This document shows, piece by piece, positions 2,319 to 46,839 of a stretch of DNA of 64,000 nt (positions are counted from its first letter, which is position 1; each line of letters opens with the position of its first letter). Position numbers and translations under genes: made by a program. Source of the stretch: Candidatus Bathyarchaeia archaeon (GTDB lineage: Archaea; Thermoproteota; Bathyarchaeia; Bathyarchaeales; Bathycorpusculaceae); contig JAVZNC010000001.1 of assembly GCA_038882955.1 (NCBI GenBank), forward strand, positions 32,001-96,000. The letters are read 5' to 3'. The notes below the pieces were generated by a model. That model was given only the letters and a program-made list of their open reading frames with translations. It did no database searches and was not told the DNA's origin.

Positions 2319-2421
2319 ACAGCAATTTACACCTCCCTTCATTTTTCAATTAAAAGCAAACGCCACATCCCACTCTGTTGGAAAAGTTTATTTCACTGAT
2401 AAGTGTGTTATGAACAAACGT

Positions 2422-2468
2422 TGGCGGATAGGCATCCGCTGGGATGTAACCCTAAAGAAAAGGGGTTG
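2422..2468 (+). promoter_or_regulatory. Putative structured 5' leader of the rpl15e operon (two hairpins)
   Basis: TGGCGGAT-aggc-ATCCGCTG stem-loop followed by AACCCT...GGGGTT stem-loop, upstream of SD AGGAGG and ATG 2502. Confidence 0.45.
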
Positions 2469-2501
2469 AACCATAAACTAGAAAGGAGGAATGCATTGGA
2501 A

Positions 2502-3077
2502 ATGGCGTACAAGTACATTGCAGAGGCTTGGTCAAAACCAGAAAAATCCTTCGTAGACGAGCTTATGCGCCAGAGGCTAATCGAATGGCGCAGGCAACCA
2601 GCCATAACCCGCGTGGAAAAGCCCACAAGACTGGATAGGGCGAGAAGGCTTGGTTACAAGGCGAAACAAGGCTTCATAATAGTCCGTGTGCGCGTTAGAA
2701 GAGGAGGCTTACGGAAACAGCGTCCAAGGTCTGGAAGAAGACCGAAGCGCATGGGTGTCAAAAAGTTCAAGCCCGCCAAAAGTTTGAGGCTTATAGCCGA
2801 AGAACGCGCTGCAAGGAAGTTCCCAAACCTTGAGGTTCTAAACTCGTATTGGGTGGGCGAGGATGGACGCTCAAAATGGTTTGAAGTCATAATGGTGGAT
2901 CCGCATCACCCAGCAATAAAGGCGGATAAGGACGTGAGCTGGATAACCCAGAAACAGCACAAAAGAAGAGTTTTCAGAGGCTTGACAAGCGCAGGCAAGA
3001 AAGTTAGGGGATTAAGGCTAAAGGGAAAAGGCGCGGAAAAGTTTAGACCAAGCAAGAAGTCGGGCATGGGAGAATAG
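2502..3077 (+). CDS. rpl15e: 50S ribosomal protein L15e
   Basis: [47 protein letters not shown]. True start is likely ATG 2502 after AGGAGG. Confidence 0.97.
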
Positions 3078-3796: not shown

Positions 3797-4527
3797 AAAA
3801 GGCGTATGCGGACTTGCATTTGCTTCCAAACCCTAGGGATTTAAAACTGGTTTCGCGCATTGTGAGTAAGGCATCTGCACTTGGATACAAGGTTATAGGC
3901 ATATCATTGCCACAAAATTTTGGACAAGAAGAAATTCAAAAATTGAAAAATTTGTGCGCAGAAAACAAAATTGACTTTGTTTCTCGTGTGGATTTGAAGC
4001 TGCGAAGCCCAAAAGAGCTAATCAGAGACCTGAGAAAAATGCGGAGAAAATTCGAGTTAATAGCCGTACTATGCGAGTCAAAAAGCGTTGCAAGACAAGC
4101 AGCGAAAGATAGGCGCGTAGACCTTCTAAACTTTCCGTCAACAGACTTTCGCAAAAGATTCTTTGATAGGGCAGAGGCAGAATTAGCTTCGAACGCGTTG
4201 GCATCGCTAGAAATAGACGTTAAGCCTCTACTCACGCTTGAGGGACTCGCAAGAGTAAGGCTCATACACAACATTAGAAGAGAAGCCGCAACCGCCACCA
4301 AGTACGGTGTTCCCATAGTGATTTCGAGCGGCGTAGCAGACGAACGGCTAATGCGAAAACCGATGGAGCAAGCCTCTTTGGCTTTTCTCTTCGACTTGGA
4401 CGAGGCAGCAGCCTTAAAGGCGGTTTCAAAAAACCCAATAGCAATAGTAAAAAAGAATAGGGAGAAACTTAGTCCAAAGTTTGTTGCGCCTGGAATAAGG
4501 GTCATTCGGAAGGGGAAAGATTGCTGA
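3793..4527 (+). CDS. rnp3: Ribonuclease P protein component 3 (Rpp30)
   Basis: YADLH, ARQAAKDRRVDLL, VPIVISSG, LMRKP; PHP-like TIM barrel; operon context. Confidence 0.9.
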   Translation: MKKAYADLHLLPNPRDLKLVSRIVSKASALGYKVIGISLPQNFGQEEIQKLKNLCAENKIDFVSRVDLKLRSPKELIRDLRKMRRKFELIAVLCESKSVARQAAKDRRVDLLNFPSTDFRKRFFDRAEAELASNALASLEIDVKPLLTLEGLARVRLIHNIRREAATATKYGVPIVISSGVADERLMRKPMEQASLAFLFDLDEAAALKAVSKNPIAIVKKNREKLSPKFVAPGIRVIRKGKDC

Positions 4528-4841
4528 AGAAGGTGAAGAGGCGCTATTTGGCGCTTAAAATAGATTCTACGGAAAAAATCGGCTCAAAAGAGTTTATCGA
4601 CAGCGTCTGGAACGCAGTGTTGAAGCTTTATGGAGAGTATGGCGCAAGCCATACAGGCTTGACGTTAATAAGCTATGATGATGAGCAGCAATTAGCGGTT
4701 ATACGCGTAGCGCATGCTGCCCTAAAAATGGTTAGAGCAGCAATAGCAACAATAACAAGAATAGGCGAGAAACCAGCAACCATCCACATCCTAACAGTTT
4801 CAGGAACAATAAAAACACTAAACAAAAAAATAGGAACATAA
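4521..4841 (+). CDS. rnp2: Ribonuclease P protein component 2 (Pop5/Rpp14)
   Basis: KRRYLAL, LYGEYG and VSGTIK motifs. Confidence 0.9.
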   Translation: MLKKVKRRYLALKIDSTEKIGSKEFIDSVWNAVLKLYGEYGASHTGLTLISYDDEQQLAVIRVAHAALKMVRAAIATITRIGEKPATIHILTVSGTIKTLNKKIGT

Positions 4842-4867
4842 GCTGAATAATAGCTTACTTTTGCTCA

Positions 4868-5030
4868 TCAATTGGAACCTTTCCACCAGTATAAAACTTT
4901 CCTTCCTTGCTTTGAAGAGTCAACAAGGCCTTCTCTCACTAGCTTTTCTAACGCAAGTCTCACTCTCGTGTATTGACTTGGGGCTCCTTTTGGCCAATCT
5001 TATATGCTCTGCTAGGTGTATTATCACCAT
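4868..5030 (-). pseudogene. Degraded winged-helix (ArsR-like) regulator fragment
   Basis: Manual translation gives ...SQYTRVRLALEKLVREGLVDSSKQGRKVLYW*. The upstream ATG (5030, MVIIHLAEHI) is one base out of frame. Confidence 0.4.
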
Positions 5031-5235
5031 ATTATCTCCTATATTATCACTATTTGTTTACTATTAAAAGAGAAATAGAGGTAGCTAATGGGCGGTTTAG
5101 TGAAAGGGGGCTCTAAATAATTCGGAATTAGTGTGGGAATGGGATACTGGAATGGATAAAATGGTGGTTTAGGGTCGGAGCTTGAGCGAACATCTTATAT
5201 TTTGATAATTTAATGCTAATATTTGTGGTTATACT

Positions 5236-5622
5236 GTGGAACTTACCGAGAAAGAAAGGCTAATGCTGGTTGAAAAGAAAGAGGAAATTAGAAGATTAAC
5301 AACTGAAATTTTGGGAATGGCGTCTAATCCAAAAAACGAGTTGGAAATCAAAAAAGGATTTACTAGCATTTTAGCACATTTGAATACTATCGCGTCTTAT
5401 TCTGACTGTCAGAATTACGATTTAGATAGATTAACGTCTGCTATAAACGCTTTATTTATCACCATGCGTCGTGAAGAAAGAGCGAATGTCTGGGTTGTCT
5501 CCCCATTGTATATCGAGGTAACTTGCAATCACATAAATTCCATTAGATTCAATTTCACAAAAAGAGACGTAAAGATACATCTGCCTAAAATAGACATTTC
5601 GATATTCAGAACTAATAAATAG
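5236..5622 (+). CDS. Hypothetical protein (island cargo, helical)
   Basis: 128-aa ORF with a TATA-like element upstream; no recognisable motif. Confidence 0.65.
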   Translation: MELTEKERLMLVEKKEEIRRLTTEILGMASNPKNELEIKKGFTSILAHLNTIASYSDCQNYDLDRLTSAINALFITMRREERANVWVVSPLYIEVTCNHINSIRFNFTKRDVKIHLPKIDISIFRTNK

Positions 5623-5712
5623 GTAGAGCATTAAAATCTTTATTTGTAAATAGCTGATGCTTGTTACGATACGAAAGGTGGGAAACGTAAGAAATTATGA
5701 AAAGTGATAATC

Positions 5713-6117
5713 ATGGAAAAACCGCTAGGTAAAGAAGAACAAAAGGCGTATTTGCATAGTAAAATAGGAGAATCAGTCAATTTTAAGTACCCAGAACCCC
5801 CGTACCTTTTGAAAGGTAAGTTACTGGACAGATATGCAATTTCTTTGGGATATGGAGACGAATGGGTAGATTATTAGATGATTGTAGACATTATTAAGTT
5901 TGAAGGTGAGACTGAGGACTGGCTAAGGATAACTTACTATAGGTACAAGAAGAAAGAAATGAGATGGGTTTTTGCGGGTCAAACAGCATTGGCGATGCCA
6001 ATAAGTGGTTTCCGTGAATTATTCATCAAGGTAATAAAAGAGAAAGAATGGATTAGACCGCTTTTCAAAGAAATCTACAAACAATGTTTAAACGAGTTAA
6101 ATATAGAAAACTTATAG
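5713..6117 (+). pseudogene. Hypothetical protein interrupted by an in-frame TAG (5875-5877)
   Basis: ATG 5713 opens 54 codons (MEKPLGK...EWVDY), then TAG, then continues in the same frame as ORF 5878-6117. Confidence 0.65.
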
Positions 6118-6230
6118 CTGAACCAAAAGAACTAATCAGAATCAGAGAATTGCATAGGCTCTTTTTGAGAACAGAGCAAAAGTTTAAAATTTTATATAGA
6201 AAACTGCCTATTAACTGGATGAGAATTAAA

Positions 6231-6524
6231 ATGAGTAAAGAACTTGAACTTAAACCATTGCTAAAGAAACTAGACGACCTAGCCAATAAAATAGACACGT
6301 TAATCATGGTCACAGCAGTTACACATCAGAGTCAAAAACTTTTAGAAGGCAAATCGCAGAAAGAGCAGATTAAAATTCTTGCTGAAAGAAAGCTTCCGAG
6401 AGACGTAATCGCGTTGATAGTCGGCACCAAACCAGAAGTTGTAAGTGTTAGGTTAAGCGAATTAAAGAGTAAGTCTGGTAAACCAAAGGAAAAACCACAA
6501 AAACAAGTAGAAGAGGCTCAATAA
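6231..6524 (+). CDS. Small coiled-coil plus HTH protein
   Basis: KLDDLANKIDTLI...EQIKILAERKLPRDVIALIVGTKPEVVSVRLSELK (HTH pattern); likely start ATG 6231. Confidence 0.7.
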   Translation: MSKELELKPLLKKLDDLANKIDTLIMVTAVTHQSQKLLEGKSQKEQIKILAERKLPRDVIALIVGTKPEVVSVRLSELKSKSGKPKEKPQKQVEEAQ

Positions 6525-6541
6525 ATAAGAGGATCATTTAA

Positions 6542-6745
6542 ATGAAAACGAAAAAATCCGTTGGAAATAGTGGTTTAAATAAGAAAATTGAAAAGGTAAA
6601 CAAGAAACTGGACATGATAATAGTTATCCTTTTAGCTAAATCTGGTTTTACAAGAAAAGAAGTAGCCGACGTTTTGAAGGTAAGCGAGAAAACCATAGAA
6701 CGAATGCTTCCATTTGAGAAGCTCAAAAAACGGCGTGAAGAATGA
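6542..6745 (+). CDS. Small HTH protein
   Basis: KLDMIIVILLAKSGFTRKEVADVLKVSEKTIERML; ATGA overlap with the next gene. Confidence 0.75.
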   Translation: MKTKKSVGNSGLNKKIEKVNKKLDMIIVILLAKSGFTRKEVADVLKVSEKTIERMLPFEKLKKRREE

Positions 6746-7449
6746 AAAAGCCTGAATTAGACCCACGGATTGTTCAAAAAATAAAAAGAAAGGGAAAAAT
6801 TTCTGAAAAAACAATAAGACCAGCTATTTCTAAAATTAGAGGAGACAATCCCTCACTTACACTGAATGCTGCAGCAGAAATATTCGCTAAGAAACATGGT
6901 TTCAGCGTTTCAAGATATCTAAATGACAAGGATAGGGACGCCTTAAAGAGTCTGCAAATAGAAAAAATAAAAGTGCCAGTAGGCAAACCAAAATCAAGAA
7001 AGAAAATTGCAATAATCGCCAATTATGACACTACTGACCCATTACTAAAAGCTCATATTGATGAAATAAACAAAACATATACCTACGGATGTTACACAGC
7101 TACTTTTATTCTCTGTAGGAAAGTTTTAGAAAATTTGATAGTTCATCATATTCTTAGAAAAAAATATCCAGAAAACTCAGAACAGCATAGAAGTAAATAT
7201 TTTGATTTTAATAGAAACAGAAATTTAGATTTCAATAAATTATTGACAAATTTGAGGGAATCATCTAAGGACTTCGGACCAGAGAAAAGTCTTGTTGAAA
7301 GAATCTGTCAGTTGGCGGAGAGATTCAAAGAAGAAGCAAATGAAATGACGCACTCTTTGTATCATATAGCAACAAAGAAAGAGATAGATGAAATACGATT
7401 TCAGTATATACTGGATTTAATTAAAAAACTTGAAAGGACTTTGTCCTAA
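6742..7449 (+). CDS. Helical N-terminal domain plus DUF4145/HEPN-like C-terminal domain protein
   Basis: YTATFILCRKVLENLI and KEEANEMTH resemble the DUF4145 A...+R..+E and R..GN..AH motifs. Confidence 0.6.
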   Translation: MKKPELDPRIVQKIKRKGKISEKTIRPAISKIRGDNPSLTLNAAAEIFAKKHGFSVSRYLNDKDRDALKSLQIEKIKVPVGKPKSRKKIAIIANYDTTDPLLKAHIDEINKTYTYGCYTATFILCRKVLENLIVHHILRKKYPENSEQHRSKYFDFNRNRNLDFNKLLTNLRESSKDFGPEKSLVERICQLAERFKEEANEMTHSLYHIATKKEIDEIRFQYILDLIKKLERTLS

Positions 7450-7537
7450 ATTTTCTGAGACTTATTTTTATATTATCATCTTAGGCTTTCGTAGGCAGTA
7501 TCCCCATTCAGTTTTAGTTAGTAGTGCATTTGTATAG

Positions 7538-8500
7538 CTATTTACGTTTACGGAATAGCTTAGCACCATCTATATCAGTTACATAGTCAAAGCCTTGCTC
7601 TAGCAGAGTCTTAGCCTCATCAAGGGTTCTAGCCACAGCAACATGGTACTCTTCAGATGGAAAGGCTACTAGGTGAGTGTAACGGAGAGTGGCTCTAAGG
7701 TCTCTATGACCCATTATAGATTTAACATATAGCAAATCTTTAGTTTTATAATATTCTAAGGAAGCCTTAAGGTGTCTAAGGTCGTAGAGGCGTATAGACT
7801 TAATGGAAGGGTCACCGAGCTTATTAGCAACCTTGTTACGTACACGTCTAAAGGTTTCAGATAGGGATTCAGACCTTATAGGAAAGAGCCTATCATTTAA
7901 AGATAGTTTTTTAATGGCTACGTAGGCTTTTAGCATAGCTAGTGTTTGAGGTGTAAGTTTAAGGGTTCTACCAGAGCAGTGTTTAGCACTTGTAACAGTC
8001 ACCATACCAGACTCTAAATCTACATCTTTAAGCCTTAACCATGTAAGCTCTATAGGTCTAAGACCTAGGTCTCTAATTATACTAAAGGCTAACGCATACC
8101 TTTTAGAAGCATTAGATATTATCAGATTAACCTTTTCCATAGTAGGTAGCTTTGGCAGTCTATCATAGCGTTTATAGAAGGGTTTAGACCATGCTAGACC
8201 GTTAGCCTTGCAATAGAGGTCGTAGGCTTCCACTAGAGTCTCTTTAAAAGCCATGCTACAACCTTTTAAAGCTATAAAGCCCTTTACAGTCTCTGGATTG
8301 GATAGGTCACAGTTTCTAGATAGGTGTCTAAGCCTTTTAGCAGTAGCCTTGATATAGCTTTCAGAGTAGGCGTTCTTTTTCATATACCATAGAGTATTAA
8401 AAAGTTTATCAGTTGGGGATGCTGTTATAGCTTTGGGGGATGATGTTGCCGTCCCAGACTGATTTATGCGGATGAGGAACTCATGACGGACAGACCCCAA
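7538..8500 (-). CDS. Tyrosine recombinase/integrase (start uncertain; ATG 8383 or further upstream)
   Basis: Catalytic set GLRPIEL (R), SAKH (K), YDLRH (xxR), MGH (H) and LRYTHL (Y). Confidence 0.92.
   Translation of the reverse strand: MGSVRHEFLIRINQSGTATSSPKAITASPTDKLFNTLWYMKKNAYSESYIKATAKRLRHLSRNCDLSNPETVKGFIALKGCSMAFKETLVEAYDLYCKANGLAWSKPFYKRYDRLPKLPTMEKVNLIISNASKRYALAFSIIRDLGLRPIELTWLRLKDVDLESGMVTVTSAKHCSGRTLKLTPQTLAMLKAYVAIKKLSLNDRLFPIRSESLSETFRRVRNKVANKLGDPSIKSIRLYDLRHLKASLEYYKTKDLLYVKSIMGHRDLRATLRYTHLVAFPSEEYHVAVARTLDEAKTLLEQGFDYVTDIDGAKLFRKRK
8399..8411 (+). promoter_or_regulatory. Putative BRE/TATA promoter of the C/D sRNA, inside the integrase reading frame
   Basis: AAAAAGTTTATCA lies about 25 nt upstream of the sRNA 5' stem. 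Confidence 0.45.
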
Positions 8501-8501
8501 A
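8432..8501 (+). ncRNA. C/D-box methylation guide sRNA (predicted 23S Gm2251 and Um2593, E. coli numbering)
   Basis: Terminal stem TTTGGGG/CCCCAAA; C box ATGATGT; guide TGCCGTCCCAGA; D' CTGA; C' GGATGA; guide GGAACTCATGACGGA; D CAGA. Both guides pair with conserved 23S PTC sequences recalled from memory. Confidence 0.85.
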
Positions 8502-8521: not shown

Positions 8522-9250
8522 CTACAAGCGAAAACGTTCTTGTAACTTCTTTTTGCGCTTAAGCCCAAAAGCCAATGCCAAAACCAACCCTGCAACAAAA
8601 CCGCCTATGTGTGCAAAGTAGGCTACGCCTCCAGAAAGGTCAAAGTACACGTAAAACCATTGTAGCAGGAACCATATGCCTAGGAAAATGAAAGCTGGAA
8701 CTGGCAGGATCGCATAGATAAACAGCGTTAAAATTATTGCTTTTGGGTAAAGTATGAAGTAGGCGCCTAAAACGCCTGATATGGCTCCAGAAGCCCCAAC
8801 AACACCGTCAGCCAAACTCGAAGTTATGGGCAAACCCACAAGCTGATAAAGCAAAGGTGCATACAACGTTACAAGAATGTGGGTGAAATCCGCGGCTAAC
8901 CCGCAGATAAGATAGAAGATTAGGTATCCTGCATGTCCAAAAACGTCTTCTACATTATCGCCGAAAACGAAGAGGAAAAGCATGTTTCCAAAAAGGTGAA
9001 ACCAGCTGGCATGCATAAACATCGAAGTAAACAATGTATATAGGCGTTCACCGTGGAGAATTTCGTTTGGCACCATCACAAAAGCGCCGCTTTGGCTTTC
9101 TGTTCCAGCCATGTAAACCGCGATTTTCTCGTCCAAAACCCCTATGCTTGAAAGCCAAAAAACAACAAAAATTGCTATGTTCAAAATTATTAGTAGGCGG
9201 TTTACGTGCGGCGTTGTTTTAGACCTATTAACGTCTCTAATGGGAAACAA
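8522..9250 (-). CDS. Rhomboid family intramembrane serine protease
   Basis: FMHASWFHLFGNM, GASGAISG (Ser) and AHIGGF (His). Confidence 0.95.
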   Translation of the reverse strand: MFPIRDVNRSKTTPHVNRLLIILNIAIFVVFWLSSIGVLDEKIAVYMAGTESQSGAFVMVPNEILHGERLYTLFTSMFMHASWFHLFGNMLFLFVFGDNVEDVFGHAGYLIFYLICGLAADFTHILVTLYAPLLYQLVGLPITSSLADGVVGASGAISGVLGAYFILYPKAIILTLFIYAILPVPAFIFLGIWFLLQWFYVYFDLSGGVAYFAHIGGFVAGLVLALAFGLKRKKKLQERFRL

Positions 9251-31944: not shown

Positions 31945-32631
31945 CTATTTAGTTATTAGCGGGTAAACTTCCTTCTGCACATACTTCAAATAGCGTTCCT
32001 TGTCTGTTAGGTTGAATATTGTGACTGACGCGTCACGGGTTATGCCAACCACATAGCCGTATTCTCTAGCCCTTGCAACAACGTACCAAAGGTCGCCGTG
32101 TTTGCAGTAATCTTCGAAAAGCGAAGTGTTGATAAGGTCTGGTCCATAAAGCGAAAGCTTGTTCACGTTTGGAATGTCAACGTTATCGAAAAACGTTATT
32201 TTCGTATCTTCAGGATTCTTCAAGTGGAAATCTCTTAAGGTTTCGGGTGGAATCCGCGCCTCAACTATCCCGCCAACCTTTTCGAATAGGATTTCACTGA
32301 GCTTGTTGGCTATGAAGTTGGCTAGACGCTTCTTCTCTACAACGGTCAAAAATGTGGCTTCGCCATGTTCTGCAAAACTGAACAGCGCTTCAACAGTGCG
32401 CGGCAAAGGCGCCATCTTGCCTCTATGGAAAACATGAATGACGTAATCATGCGAGTAAATGCCTCGAAGACCACCTTCTTTTGAGAGAAGGTCAACAACC
32501 TCGCTAACGAGCGTAAATTTGTAATCGCCCTCCTCGTATGGTTCCTCAACATGGTATCCCTCCAGTCTAGAAGCAATTTCAGCCAACGGAAGCGGCTCCG
32601 AAAGCTTGAACACTTTGCCAGCAACAACCAT
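31945..32631 (-). CDS. Conserved archaeal hypothetical protein
   Basis: 228-aa ORF with host-like composition; no function recognised. Confidence 0.75.
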   Translation of the reverse strand: MVVAGKVFKLSEPLPLAEIASRLEGYHVEEPYEEGDYKFTLVSEVVDLLSKEGGLRGIYSHDYVIHVFHRGKMAPLPRTVEALFSFAEHGEATFLTVVEKKRLANFIANKLSEILFEKVGGIVEARIPPETLRDFHLKNPEDTKITFFDNVDIPNVNKLSLYGPDLINTSLFEDYCKHGDLWYVVARAREYGYVVGITRDASVTIFNLTDKERYLKYVQKEVYPLITK

Positions 32632-46721: not shown

Positions 46722-46839
46722 GCGGCGGTAGCCAAGCCAGGTCAAAGGCGGAGGACTCAAGATCGGCGTTTAAGGGCTAGACCCCCTATGAGCCATCCTC
46801 TCCCGTAGGGGTTCGCCGGTTCAAATCCGGCCCGCCGCA
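46722..46839 (+). tRNA. tRNA-Leu(CAA) with a 33-nt intron at 37/38 (46762-46794)
   Basis: GCGGCGG/CCGCCGC acceptor, GAGGA-CT-CAA-G^A-TCCTC, long variable arm; BHB helix CTCA/TGAG with AGA and CCA bulges. Confidence 0.95.

Follow-up and report, generated by a model that had tools for sequence, protein, structure and literature searches.

What is the short conserved block that lies between a divergent integrase gene and a rhomboid protease gene in a Bathyarchaeia genome, and why should integrative elements be found beside it? The block occupies positions 8432-8501 (plus strand) of the 64,000-nt stretch analysed here (the window), which is positions 32,001 to 96,000 of contig JAVZNC010000001.1 (G000:C1:32001-96000) in the metagenome-assembled genome (MAG) GCA_038882955.1 of a Candidatus Bathyarchaeia archaeon (G000; 1,537,843 bases in 31 contigs, 43% G+C). 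An initial annotation had read it as a dual-guide C/D small RNA (sRNA), and conservation, covariation between guide and target, and the presence of genes for the C/D ribonucleoprotein (RNP) support that reading at the level of sequence. With a probability of about 0.87, the best explanation is that 8432-8501 is a dual-guide archaeal C/D sRNA gene whose first ~23 nt also serve as the attachment (att) core of tyrosine-integrase elements of 2-6 kb. The sRNA is a single-copy, class-wide, well-supported new family of a well-known kind; more surprising is that its gene is used for integration.

The block reads, in full order, TTTGGGG-G-ATGATGT-TGCCGTCCCAGA-CTGA-TTTATGCGG-ATGAGGA-ACTCATGACGGA-CAGA-CCCCAAA (8432-8501, plus strand), and both guide spacers, C to D' and C' to D, are exactly 12 nt long. 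The D' guide is called guide 1 and the D guide guide 2 below, and R1 is a covariance model (CM) with 6 base pairs that we built from 59 sequences. The parts of the locus are as follows.

8400-8410, plus strand: TATA-like box AAAAGTTTATC in element-derived DNA, ~27 nt ahead of the RNA
8432-8501, plus strand: box C/D sRNA gene, 70 nt including the terminal stem (R1 score 89.8 bits)
8432-8438, plus strand: 5' arm of the terminal stem, TTTGGGG, pairing with 8495-8501
8439, plus strand: unpaired G between the stem and the C box
8440-8446, plus strand: C box AUGAUGU, a variant at position 7
8447-8458, plus strand: D' guide TGCCGTCCCAGA, 12 nt; its core GCCGUCCCAG pairs with the 23S P-loop CUGGGGCGGC, with N+5 at G2251 (E. 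coli numbering)
8459-8462, plus strand: D' box CUGA (CNGA among homologs)
8463-8471, plus strand: D'-C' spacer TTTATGCGG, 9 nt, varying in sequence and length among homologs
8472-8478, plus strand: C' box AUGAGGA
8479-8490, plus strand: D guide ACTCATGACGGA, 12 nt; its core CUCAUGACGG pairs with 23S CCGUCGUGAG, with N+5 at U2593 (E. coli numbering)
8491-8494, plus strand: D box CAGA, a family-wide variant of CUGA
8495-8501, plus strand: 3' arm of the terminal stem, CCCCAAA

The 7-bp terminal stem and the four boxes had been described in the initial annotation, and the sequence at 8432-8501 bears both out. All seven pairs form in the source genome, and the inner GGGG/CCCC alone is kept among relatives; the outer three pairs are possible in ~40-55% of the 59 sequences and show no covariation above shuffles. 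Both AUGAUGU and CAGA retain the GA dinucleotides from which the tandem G-A/A-G pairs of a kink-turn (k-turn) are predicted. That these variant boxes suit one another had also been proposed, and the homologs agree: C-box U5 can pair with D-box A2 in 54 of 59 sequences, C-box U7 can pair with the base preceding D in 51 of 59, and CAGA is used throughout the family. A loose regular expression for the four-box architecture has a single match in the whole 1.54-Mb genome, at this locus, and none in any of three shuffled genomes. At nearly all loci inspected the RNA is preceded, at a distance of ~27 nt, by a TTTA(T/A)-type motif, and the box at 8400-8410 is a candidate promoter for the sRNA.

General RNA searches give little signal at the locus. 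At gathering thresholds Rfam returns no C/D match in the window, and below threshold the best snoRNA look-alikes reach 19.6, 18.7, and 14 bits against gathering scores of 70, 50, and 55. The second of these, sR60 of Pyrococcus (RF01309, 18.7 bits against 50), shares the boxes and UGACGGA before box D and is not a family to which our RNA belongs; nor does it belong to yeast snR67 (RF01177, 14 bits against 55). Yeast uses snR67 as its guide for the P-loop G, and this RNA guides Gm2619 and Um2724. The folding energy of our sRNA is ordinary (z = -1.59), as is normal for C/D sRNAs.

Which nucleotides would the two guides select? Since the MAG's own 23S rRNA stops at model position 1422, pairing was assessed on the 23S of relatives, with the complete 23S of the same-family genome G005 (locus L002) as the reference for the target search. 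Guide 1 has a single site of its quality there, GCUGGGGCGGCA, with 10 Watson-Crick pairs, one G-U, and a mismatch beside D'; guide 2 likewise has one, ACCGUCGUGAGA, with nine Watson-Crick pairs, one G-U, and mismatches at both ends. With the relatives' 23S, guide 1 forms a C-G pair at N+5 and guide 2 an A-U pair. E. coli numbering was obtained by counting columns in the 23S alignment published with PMC4644070 (supplementary file 2, parts 3 and 4), a paper that itself takes alignment G2520 to be E. coli G2251 and C2880 to be C2606. On this scale N+5 of guide 1 is G2251, the second G of GGGG, and N+5 of guide 2 is U2593 (alignment U2867). Both targets, each with one G-U pair, had been proposed before any relative's 23S was consulted and are confirmed on it, and the predicted spacing of about 340 nt turns out to be 345 nt, with the guide 2 site downstream.

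When the guides are shuffled and searched against the G005 23S and the whole of contig C11, equal quality (10 paired positions with at most one G-U) is reached in 254/5000 and 277/5000 trials, and the joint chance of both sites is ~0.3% if independence is assumed. Scanning the guides across the source genome gave chance-level sites only, and the organism's own 16S holds no site comparable to the 23S targets. The one perfect 11-nt match to guide 1, on contig C3 (near 127412, minus strand) was rejected; it lies antisense inside a long ORF (open reading frame), with no Rfam RNA there. The targets themselves are stable: the P-loop is GGCUGGGGCGGCA in 22 of the 23 class genomes in which it is within reach, and the second target is GUCGUGAG in all seven same-family genomes that hold the region.

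The second target varies within the class, and guide 2 changes with it. Position 2596 of 23S is either U or C, and it can pair with guide position 8 in 17/17 genomes, with no mismatches. Where 23S carries C2596 and the sRNA is present (four genomes: G179, G162, and G138 in one family and G049 in another), guide position 8 is G in 4/4; in the 13 genomes with U2596 it is A in nine and G, as a wobble, in four. Such an exchange of A-U for G-C is what would be expected of a working guide. In Baldrarchaeum (L157, with its 23S in L165) guide and target also fit, by a G-C pair at position 8; it was left out of the count on account of an unclear D box.

Both guides also carry a wobble U at position 7 from the box (window 8453 and 8484), the one in guide 1 opposite a P-loop G that would be G2253. 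The wobble U is kept in almost all inspected homologs selected by BLAST or CM, including the variants GCCAGTCCCAG and GTCGTCCCAG, and is shifted by one position in two copies (L027 and G122).

How widely is the RNA kept? A 96-nt BLAST search (E <= 1e-8) recovered full-length copies in 26 of 41 relatives, including G000, at 77-98% identity, and the named records with the same RNA are nearly all 'Candidatus Bathyarchaeia/Bathyarchaeota' MAGs. The class-wide R1 search covered 151 Bathyarchaeia genomes with stricter filters at that scale and says nothing on absence elsewhere; it found exactly one copy each in 61 of the 151, in 43 of 94 high-quality genomes, and in 14 of 15 genomes of family f1. 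Aligning the 28 BLAST-selected copies shows conservation of the GGGG/CCCC stem, of the boxes, and of both guide cores; the flanks share no relationship, and the D'-C' spacer differs between copies in both sequence and length. Of the 28 copies, 27 have the same guide 1 core (GCCGTCCCAG) and 26 a guide 2 of the U2593 type (YATGACG, once CACGACG), and the D box is CAGA in 26 of the 27 uncut copies on which D-box counts rest.

In many Bathyarchaeia the D guide is less constant. It has been replaced, with the P-loop guide and all boxes intact, at L031, L045, L054, L069, L086, L102, and other loci, either by AT-rich sequence (AATTAAAGTTGA, ACAAAATATTGA) or by a third type (CTACAAGGCTGG), in what looks like guide turnover on a fixed scaffold. 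Does only the P-loop guide methylate, then, with the D guide of a real C/D sRNA acting as a tether or chaperone at most, or simply drifting? In favour of this, guide 1 does not vary across the class, guide 2 has given way to unrelated, often AT-rich sequence in 2/28 BLAST-selected copies as well as at many further loci, and the guide 2 duplex combines mismatches at both ends with a U-G wobble at position 7. We nevertheless consider this unlikely, because within the order guide 2 is conserved as well as guide 1, it retains a 10-bp duplex with A-U at N+5, it changes together with 23S 2596 across families, and the same site (alignment U2867) is a predicted target in other archaea in the entries seen of PMC4644070.

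The RNA is almost always found directly after the gene for the RNase P subunit Pop5, even where Pop5 identity has fallen to 26-42%. The family looks like the core C/D sRNA of the class: it has one copy per genome, keeps its synteny with Pop5, and in the source genome no other locus shows a clear four-box layout. Two more C/D-like loci were seen, at G000:C2 ~184909-184990 (plus strand) and G000:C3 ~106340-106420 (minus strand); each has a guide with nine perfect pairs to the PTC (peptidyl-transferase centre) region of a relative's 23S, and for one of them N+5 falls, by our own count, on the equivalent of C2498. Genome-wide, real guides gave eight matches and decoys five, and canonical C...D pairs with a stem numbered two, against 0, 0, and 4 in shuffles, which suggests a very small C/D repertoire in the source genome.

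The class-wide link to Pop5 raises a second alternative, in which the block is a cis-acting k-turn in the 3' untranslated region of the Pop5 mRNA, for example an L7Ae-binding regulator, and no trans-acting guide at all. L7Ae is common to RNase P and C/D RNPs (PMC4919917, from the portion seen), which would suit such a regulator. The TATA-like motif at about -27 argues for a transcript of the RNA's own, however, inserted elements separate the RNA from Pop5 by 2-6 kb and leave it intact, and two 12-nt spacers with conserved rRNA complementarity would be pointless in a cis k-turn; we regard this explanation as very improbable.

A dual-guide sRNA would need its protein partners, and the source genome has a fibrillarin gene (321.6 bits) adjacent to Nop5 (Nop, 256 bits) and two genes of the L7Ae family. 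The features that define archaeal C/D sRNAs are found together here: C/D boxes, D' and C' boxes with a short spacer, ~12-nt guides, rRNA complementarity of at least 9-10 bp, and C/D RNP genes. In the mechanism we propose, the sRNA would be transcribed from the TATA-like promoter ~27 nt upstream and bound by L7Ae at two places, the C/D k-turn and the C'/D' k-loop; addition of Nop5 and fibrillarin would make the RNP complete. The D' guide would then pair with the P-loop (helix 80) of nascent 23S and direct a 2'-O-methyl group to G2251, and the D guide would pair 345 nt downstream and direct one to U2593. Both strands would be held at once, one RNP bridging two segments of the PTC, and the sRNA may also aid the folding of that centre.

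Why do integrative elements adjoin this gene? In the empty sites of the relatives G003 and G002 the order is Pop5, ~95 nt containing the TATA-like box, the sRNA, and the rhomboid gene. In the window, additional DNA lies between Pop5 and the sRNA, and the surrounding features are these.

4521-4841, plus strand: gene for the RNase P subunit Pop5, the ancestral upstream neighbour (Pfam PF01900 and synteny)
~4856-8431, no strand assigned: integrated element of ~3.6 kb, left end approximate, from the empty-site comparison with G003 and G002
5236-5622, 5878-6117, 6084-6524, 6542-6745, and 6742-7449: small ORFs of the element, carried in addition to the integrase
7538-8383, minus strand: tyrosine integrase (PF00589), 281 amino acids, divergent from the sRNA, with its start 48 nt from the RNA 5' end
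8413-8426, plus strand: imperfect direct repeat of the sRNA 5' end (TTGGGGATGCTGTT vs TTGGGGGATGATGTT), ~20 nt upstream of the sRNA
8435-8457, plus strand: putative att core GGGGGATGATGNNGCCGTCCCAG, present in both the attL-like and the attR copies of relatives (18 pairs of direct repeats; G001, G013, and G028)
8522-9250, minus strand: rhomboid protease gene, the conserved downstream neighbour (Pfam PF01694 and synteny)

The integrase matches PF00589 (54.7 bits, E 1.4e-14) and PHROG integrase families, and its homologs are 46-72% identical over residues 1-281. R109, K134, R203, H226, and Y235, which we take to be the catalytic residues of a tyrosine recombinase, are invariant in seven homologs. 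The initial annotation had the sRNA hidden under an over-extended integrase ORF, and this is what the comparison shows: a 320-aa ORF with a TTG start (7538-8500, minus strand) covers it, and its overlap with the sRNA is an ORF-calling artefact, since in all seven homologous integrases the aligned part, residues 1-281, begins at the ATG at 8383. The genome has 11 tyrosine-recombinase (PF00589) genes in its 1.5 Mb, several on short contigs, so this integrase is not a lone Xer recombinase; the number points to a heavy load of integrative elements. Searches against phage and plasmid records returned generic tyrosine recombinases alone, at <33% identity, and neither Pfam nor PHROG offers an informative family for the element's cargo ORFs.

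The association of integrase and sRNA recurs among relatives. This integrase (seven cases) or an N-terminal remnant of it (four cases) lies directly upstream and divergent in 11 of the 38 relatives whose upstream flank spans 900 nt or more. Scanning metagenomes with the integrase alignment gave 289 relatives, of which the best 80 were examined and 75, with at least 100 nt upstream, were assessable; in 75/75 of these the sRNA core lies no more than 170 nt from the integrase start.

At 18 loci a full copy and a 5' partial copy of the sRNA form direct repeats 2.25-6.3 kb apart, with Pop5 beside the partial copy wherever the contig extends far enough, and the identical blocks in these 18 pairs are 16-40 nt long (median 24) and are essentially GGGGGATGATGNNGCCGTCCCAG. 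In G001 the Pop5 side keeps its native promoter and 27 nt of the sRNA, beyond which the DNA is foreign, and another contig has the integrase, 50 nt, and a full sRNA; G013 (9 kb) and G028 (2.4 kb, its integrase truncated) are arranged in the same way. The 5' 23 nt of the sRNA gene, comprising stem, C box, and P-loop guide, are thus the predicted att core of this tyrosine-integrase family. On integration the sRNA gene would be rebuilt at attR, where its promoter would come from the element, and a 5' fragment of it would stay at attL beside Pop5. The initial annotation had not recognized that the neighbouring integrase belongs to an element with its attachment site in this gene.

Several further observations touch the elements. 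On metagenome contig L262 (445-11958) two related integrase elements of ~5 kb each stand in tandem between Pop5 and the sRNA, and a partial sRNA copy marks the hybrid junction between them, the only attP-like junction found and one inside a tandem array. Repeats of the TTGGGGATGCTGTT type occur at many element-occupied loci and at several without a detected integrase (e.g. G040), and may be an integrase binding site or the scar of a past integration. Joints from ~4827-4833 to 8431 in the reads of four DNA runs, in which the shorter side is just 23-24 nt with 85% likeness, are a weak hint of empty-site relatives.

Could the block then be kept as DNA only, an attachment site or arm of integrase elements with no functional RNA? 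The 5' 23 nt are indeed the likely att core and this integrase clade always adjoins the sRNA core, but the full 70-nt unit is conserved at integrase-free empty sites, and so is its 3' half, to which most repeats do not extend; the columns that are kept coincide exactly with the boxes and with the cores complementary to rRNA; guide 2 covaries with 23S; and the genome has C/D RNP genes. We consider this the least probable explanation of all.

We therefore return to a dual-guide C/D sRNA whose 5' end doubles as an att core, and to the points that weigh against it. The D box CAGA and the C box, which ends in GU, depart from the canonical form, and the U-G wobble lies 2 nt from the target nucleotide in both duplexes and could lower activity. 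Covariation comes from few independent lineages, the four C2596 genomes representing two families, and the exchange of the D guide for AT-rich or other sequence in many other Bathyarchaeia implies that guide 2 is dispensable in some lineages. Loci L040-L159 were chosen with a pattern that includes the guide sequence, and the invariance of guide 1 among them carries no weight. The source MAG's 23S ends at the end of contig C11, at model position 1422, and its own PTC region is absent from the assembly; among public runs we found no RNA-type data containing the locus, the closest DNA run that contains it being a hot-spring metagenome. On the side of the elements, a free (attP) form was not found and the att core occurs in none of the viral contigs in the core scan. 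Within the window, a pattern search allowing three mismatches and local alignment revealed no attL copy for the element, which is probably locked in place; an attL copy is likewise absent at seven metagenomic loci.

Set beside known ways of modifying the same nucleotide, the sRNA differs from stand-alone enzymes. Bacterial RlmB and mitochondrial Mrm1/Pet56 are protein-only G2251 methyltransferases that work with no guide RNA; the nucleotide they modify, Gm2251, is the predicted target of guide 1, and they differ in being guide-free.

Guides to both targets have been predicted in other archaea. For G2251, Dennis et al. 2015 (PMC4644070) predicted C/D guides in three archaea out of seven: sR36 of Pyrobaculum calidifontis, sR7 of Thermoproteus tenax, and sR13 of Methanopyrus kandleri, the species being assigned from flattened tables. 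As with guide 1, N+5 of these guides is the second G in the P-loop sequence CUGGGGCGG (alignment G2520). They differ in that their partner guide targets U2544 or G2490 and not U2593 and that their hosts are Thermoproteales and Methanopyrus and not Bathyarchaeia; the likeness noted here is one of target. Guides to alignment U2867 (U2593) are listed too, one in sR17 with partner U2765 (T. tenax, again by the flattened tables) and another with partner G2920. They share their target nucleotide with the D guide here but sit on an sRNA separate from the G2251 guide, and among the entries matched in supplementary file 1 of that study G2251 and U2593 never occur on one RNA. The targets of our sRNA are thus already known, and the pairing of both in one RNA is absent from the PMC4644070 entries examined.

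As an integration site, the closest analogue by description appears to be that of the pTN3-like integrases of Thermococcales, which a 2021 review, in the part seen, describes as the only archaeal ones to use a tRNA gene by its 5' half, the gene being transcribed from the side of the element (PMC8371274). As proposed for our locus, attB is the 5' half of an RNA gene, the gene is rebuilt on integration and transcribed from the element side, and the integrase gene stays intact beside attR; the difference is that the target is a tRNA gene and not a C/D sRNA gene. In the sections seen, the same review of archaeal tyrosine recombinases gives tRNA genes, protein genes, and intergenic positions as sites, and the words sRNA and snoRNA are absent (PMC8371274). 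A non-tRNA structural RNA serves as attB for phage phiEf11, which integrates into ffs (the 4.5S RNA gene) with a core of ~27 nt, although that case, as described in the portion seen of PMC12540744, is bacterial and involves another RNA class. We found no report of a C/D sRNA gene as attB in the literature searched.

A few other observations in the genome are recorded here. Window 2424-2477 (plus strand) matches the Rfam eL15-Euryarchaeota ribosomal-protein leader (45.2 bits, above the gathering score) at or just before the start of the eL15 gene (2403-3077), outside the taxon of the family's name, the host being a member of Bathyarchaeia. A 118-nt tRNA at window 46722-46839 (plus strand) is found by Rfam (45 bits), is absent from the ARAGORN output, and is probably intron-bearing. 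The 16S gene (G000:C3:94123-95617) lies within a 191-kb contig and the 5' half of 23S (G000:C11:10447-11867) lies 10 kb into another; the two genes appear to be unlinked in the MAG.

What does the locus mean for Bathyarchaeia? The literature searched describes no C/D sRNA from this class, and the RNA at 8432-8501 is the first well-supported guide RNA for these uncultured and abundant archaea. It suggests that Gm2251, conserved more widely than any other ribose methylation in the large subunit, is made in Bathyarchaeia by a guide RNP. The list of RNA genes serving as integration sites is extended to a methylation-guide gene, and a sharply defined 23-nt att core together with hundreds of natural integrase variants makes these elements a candidate thermophile recombination system. 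We give even odds to a further idea, that the integrase clade uses a landing pad that cannot drift, being the antisense image of the universally conserved P-loop plus box C, and that the element replaces the guide's promoter, leaving Gm2251 of the host dependent on element-borne transcription signals. If this is true, the landing-pad target would be identical across a whole archaeal class, and the elements would practise hitch-hiking or addiction through an rRNA-modification guide.

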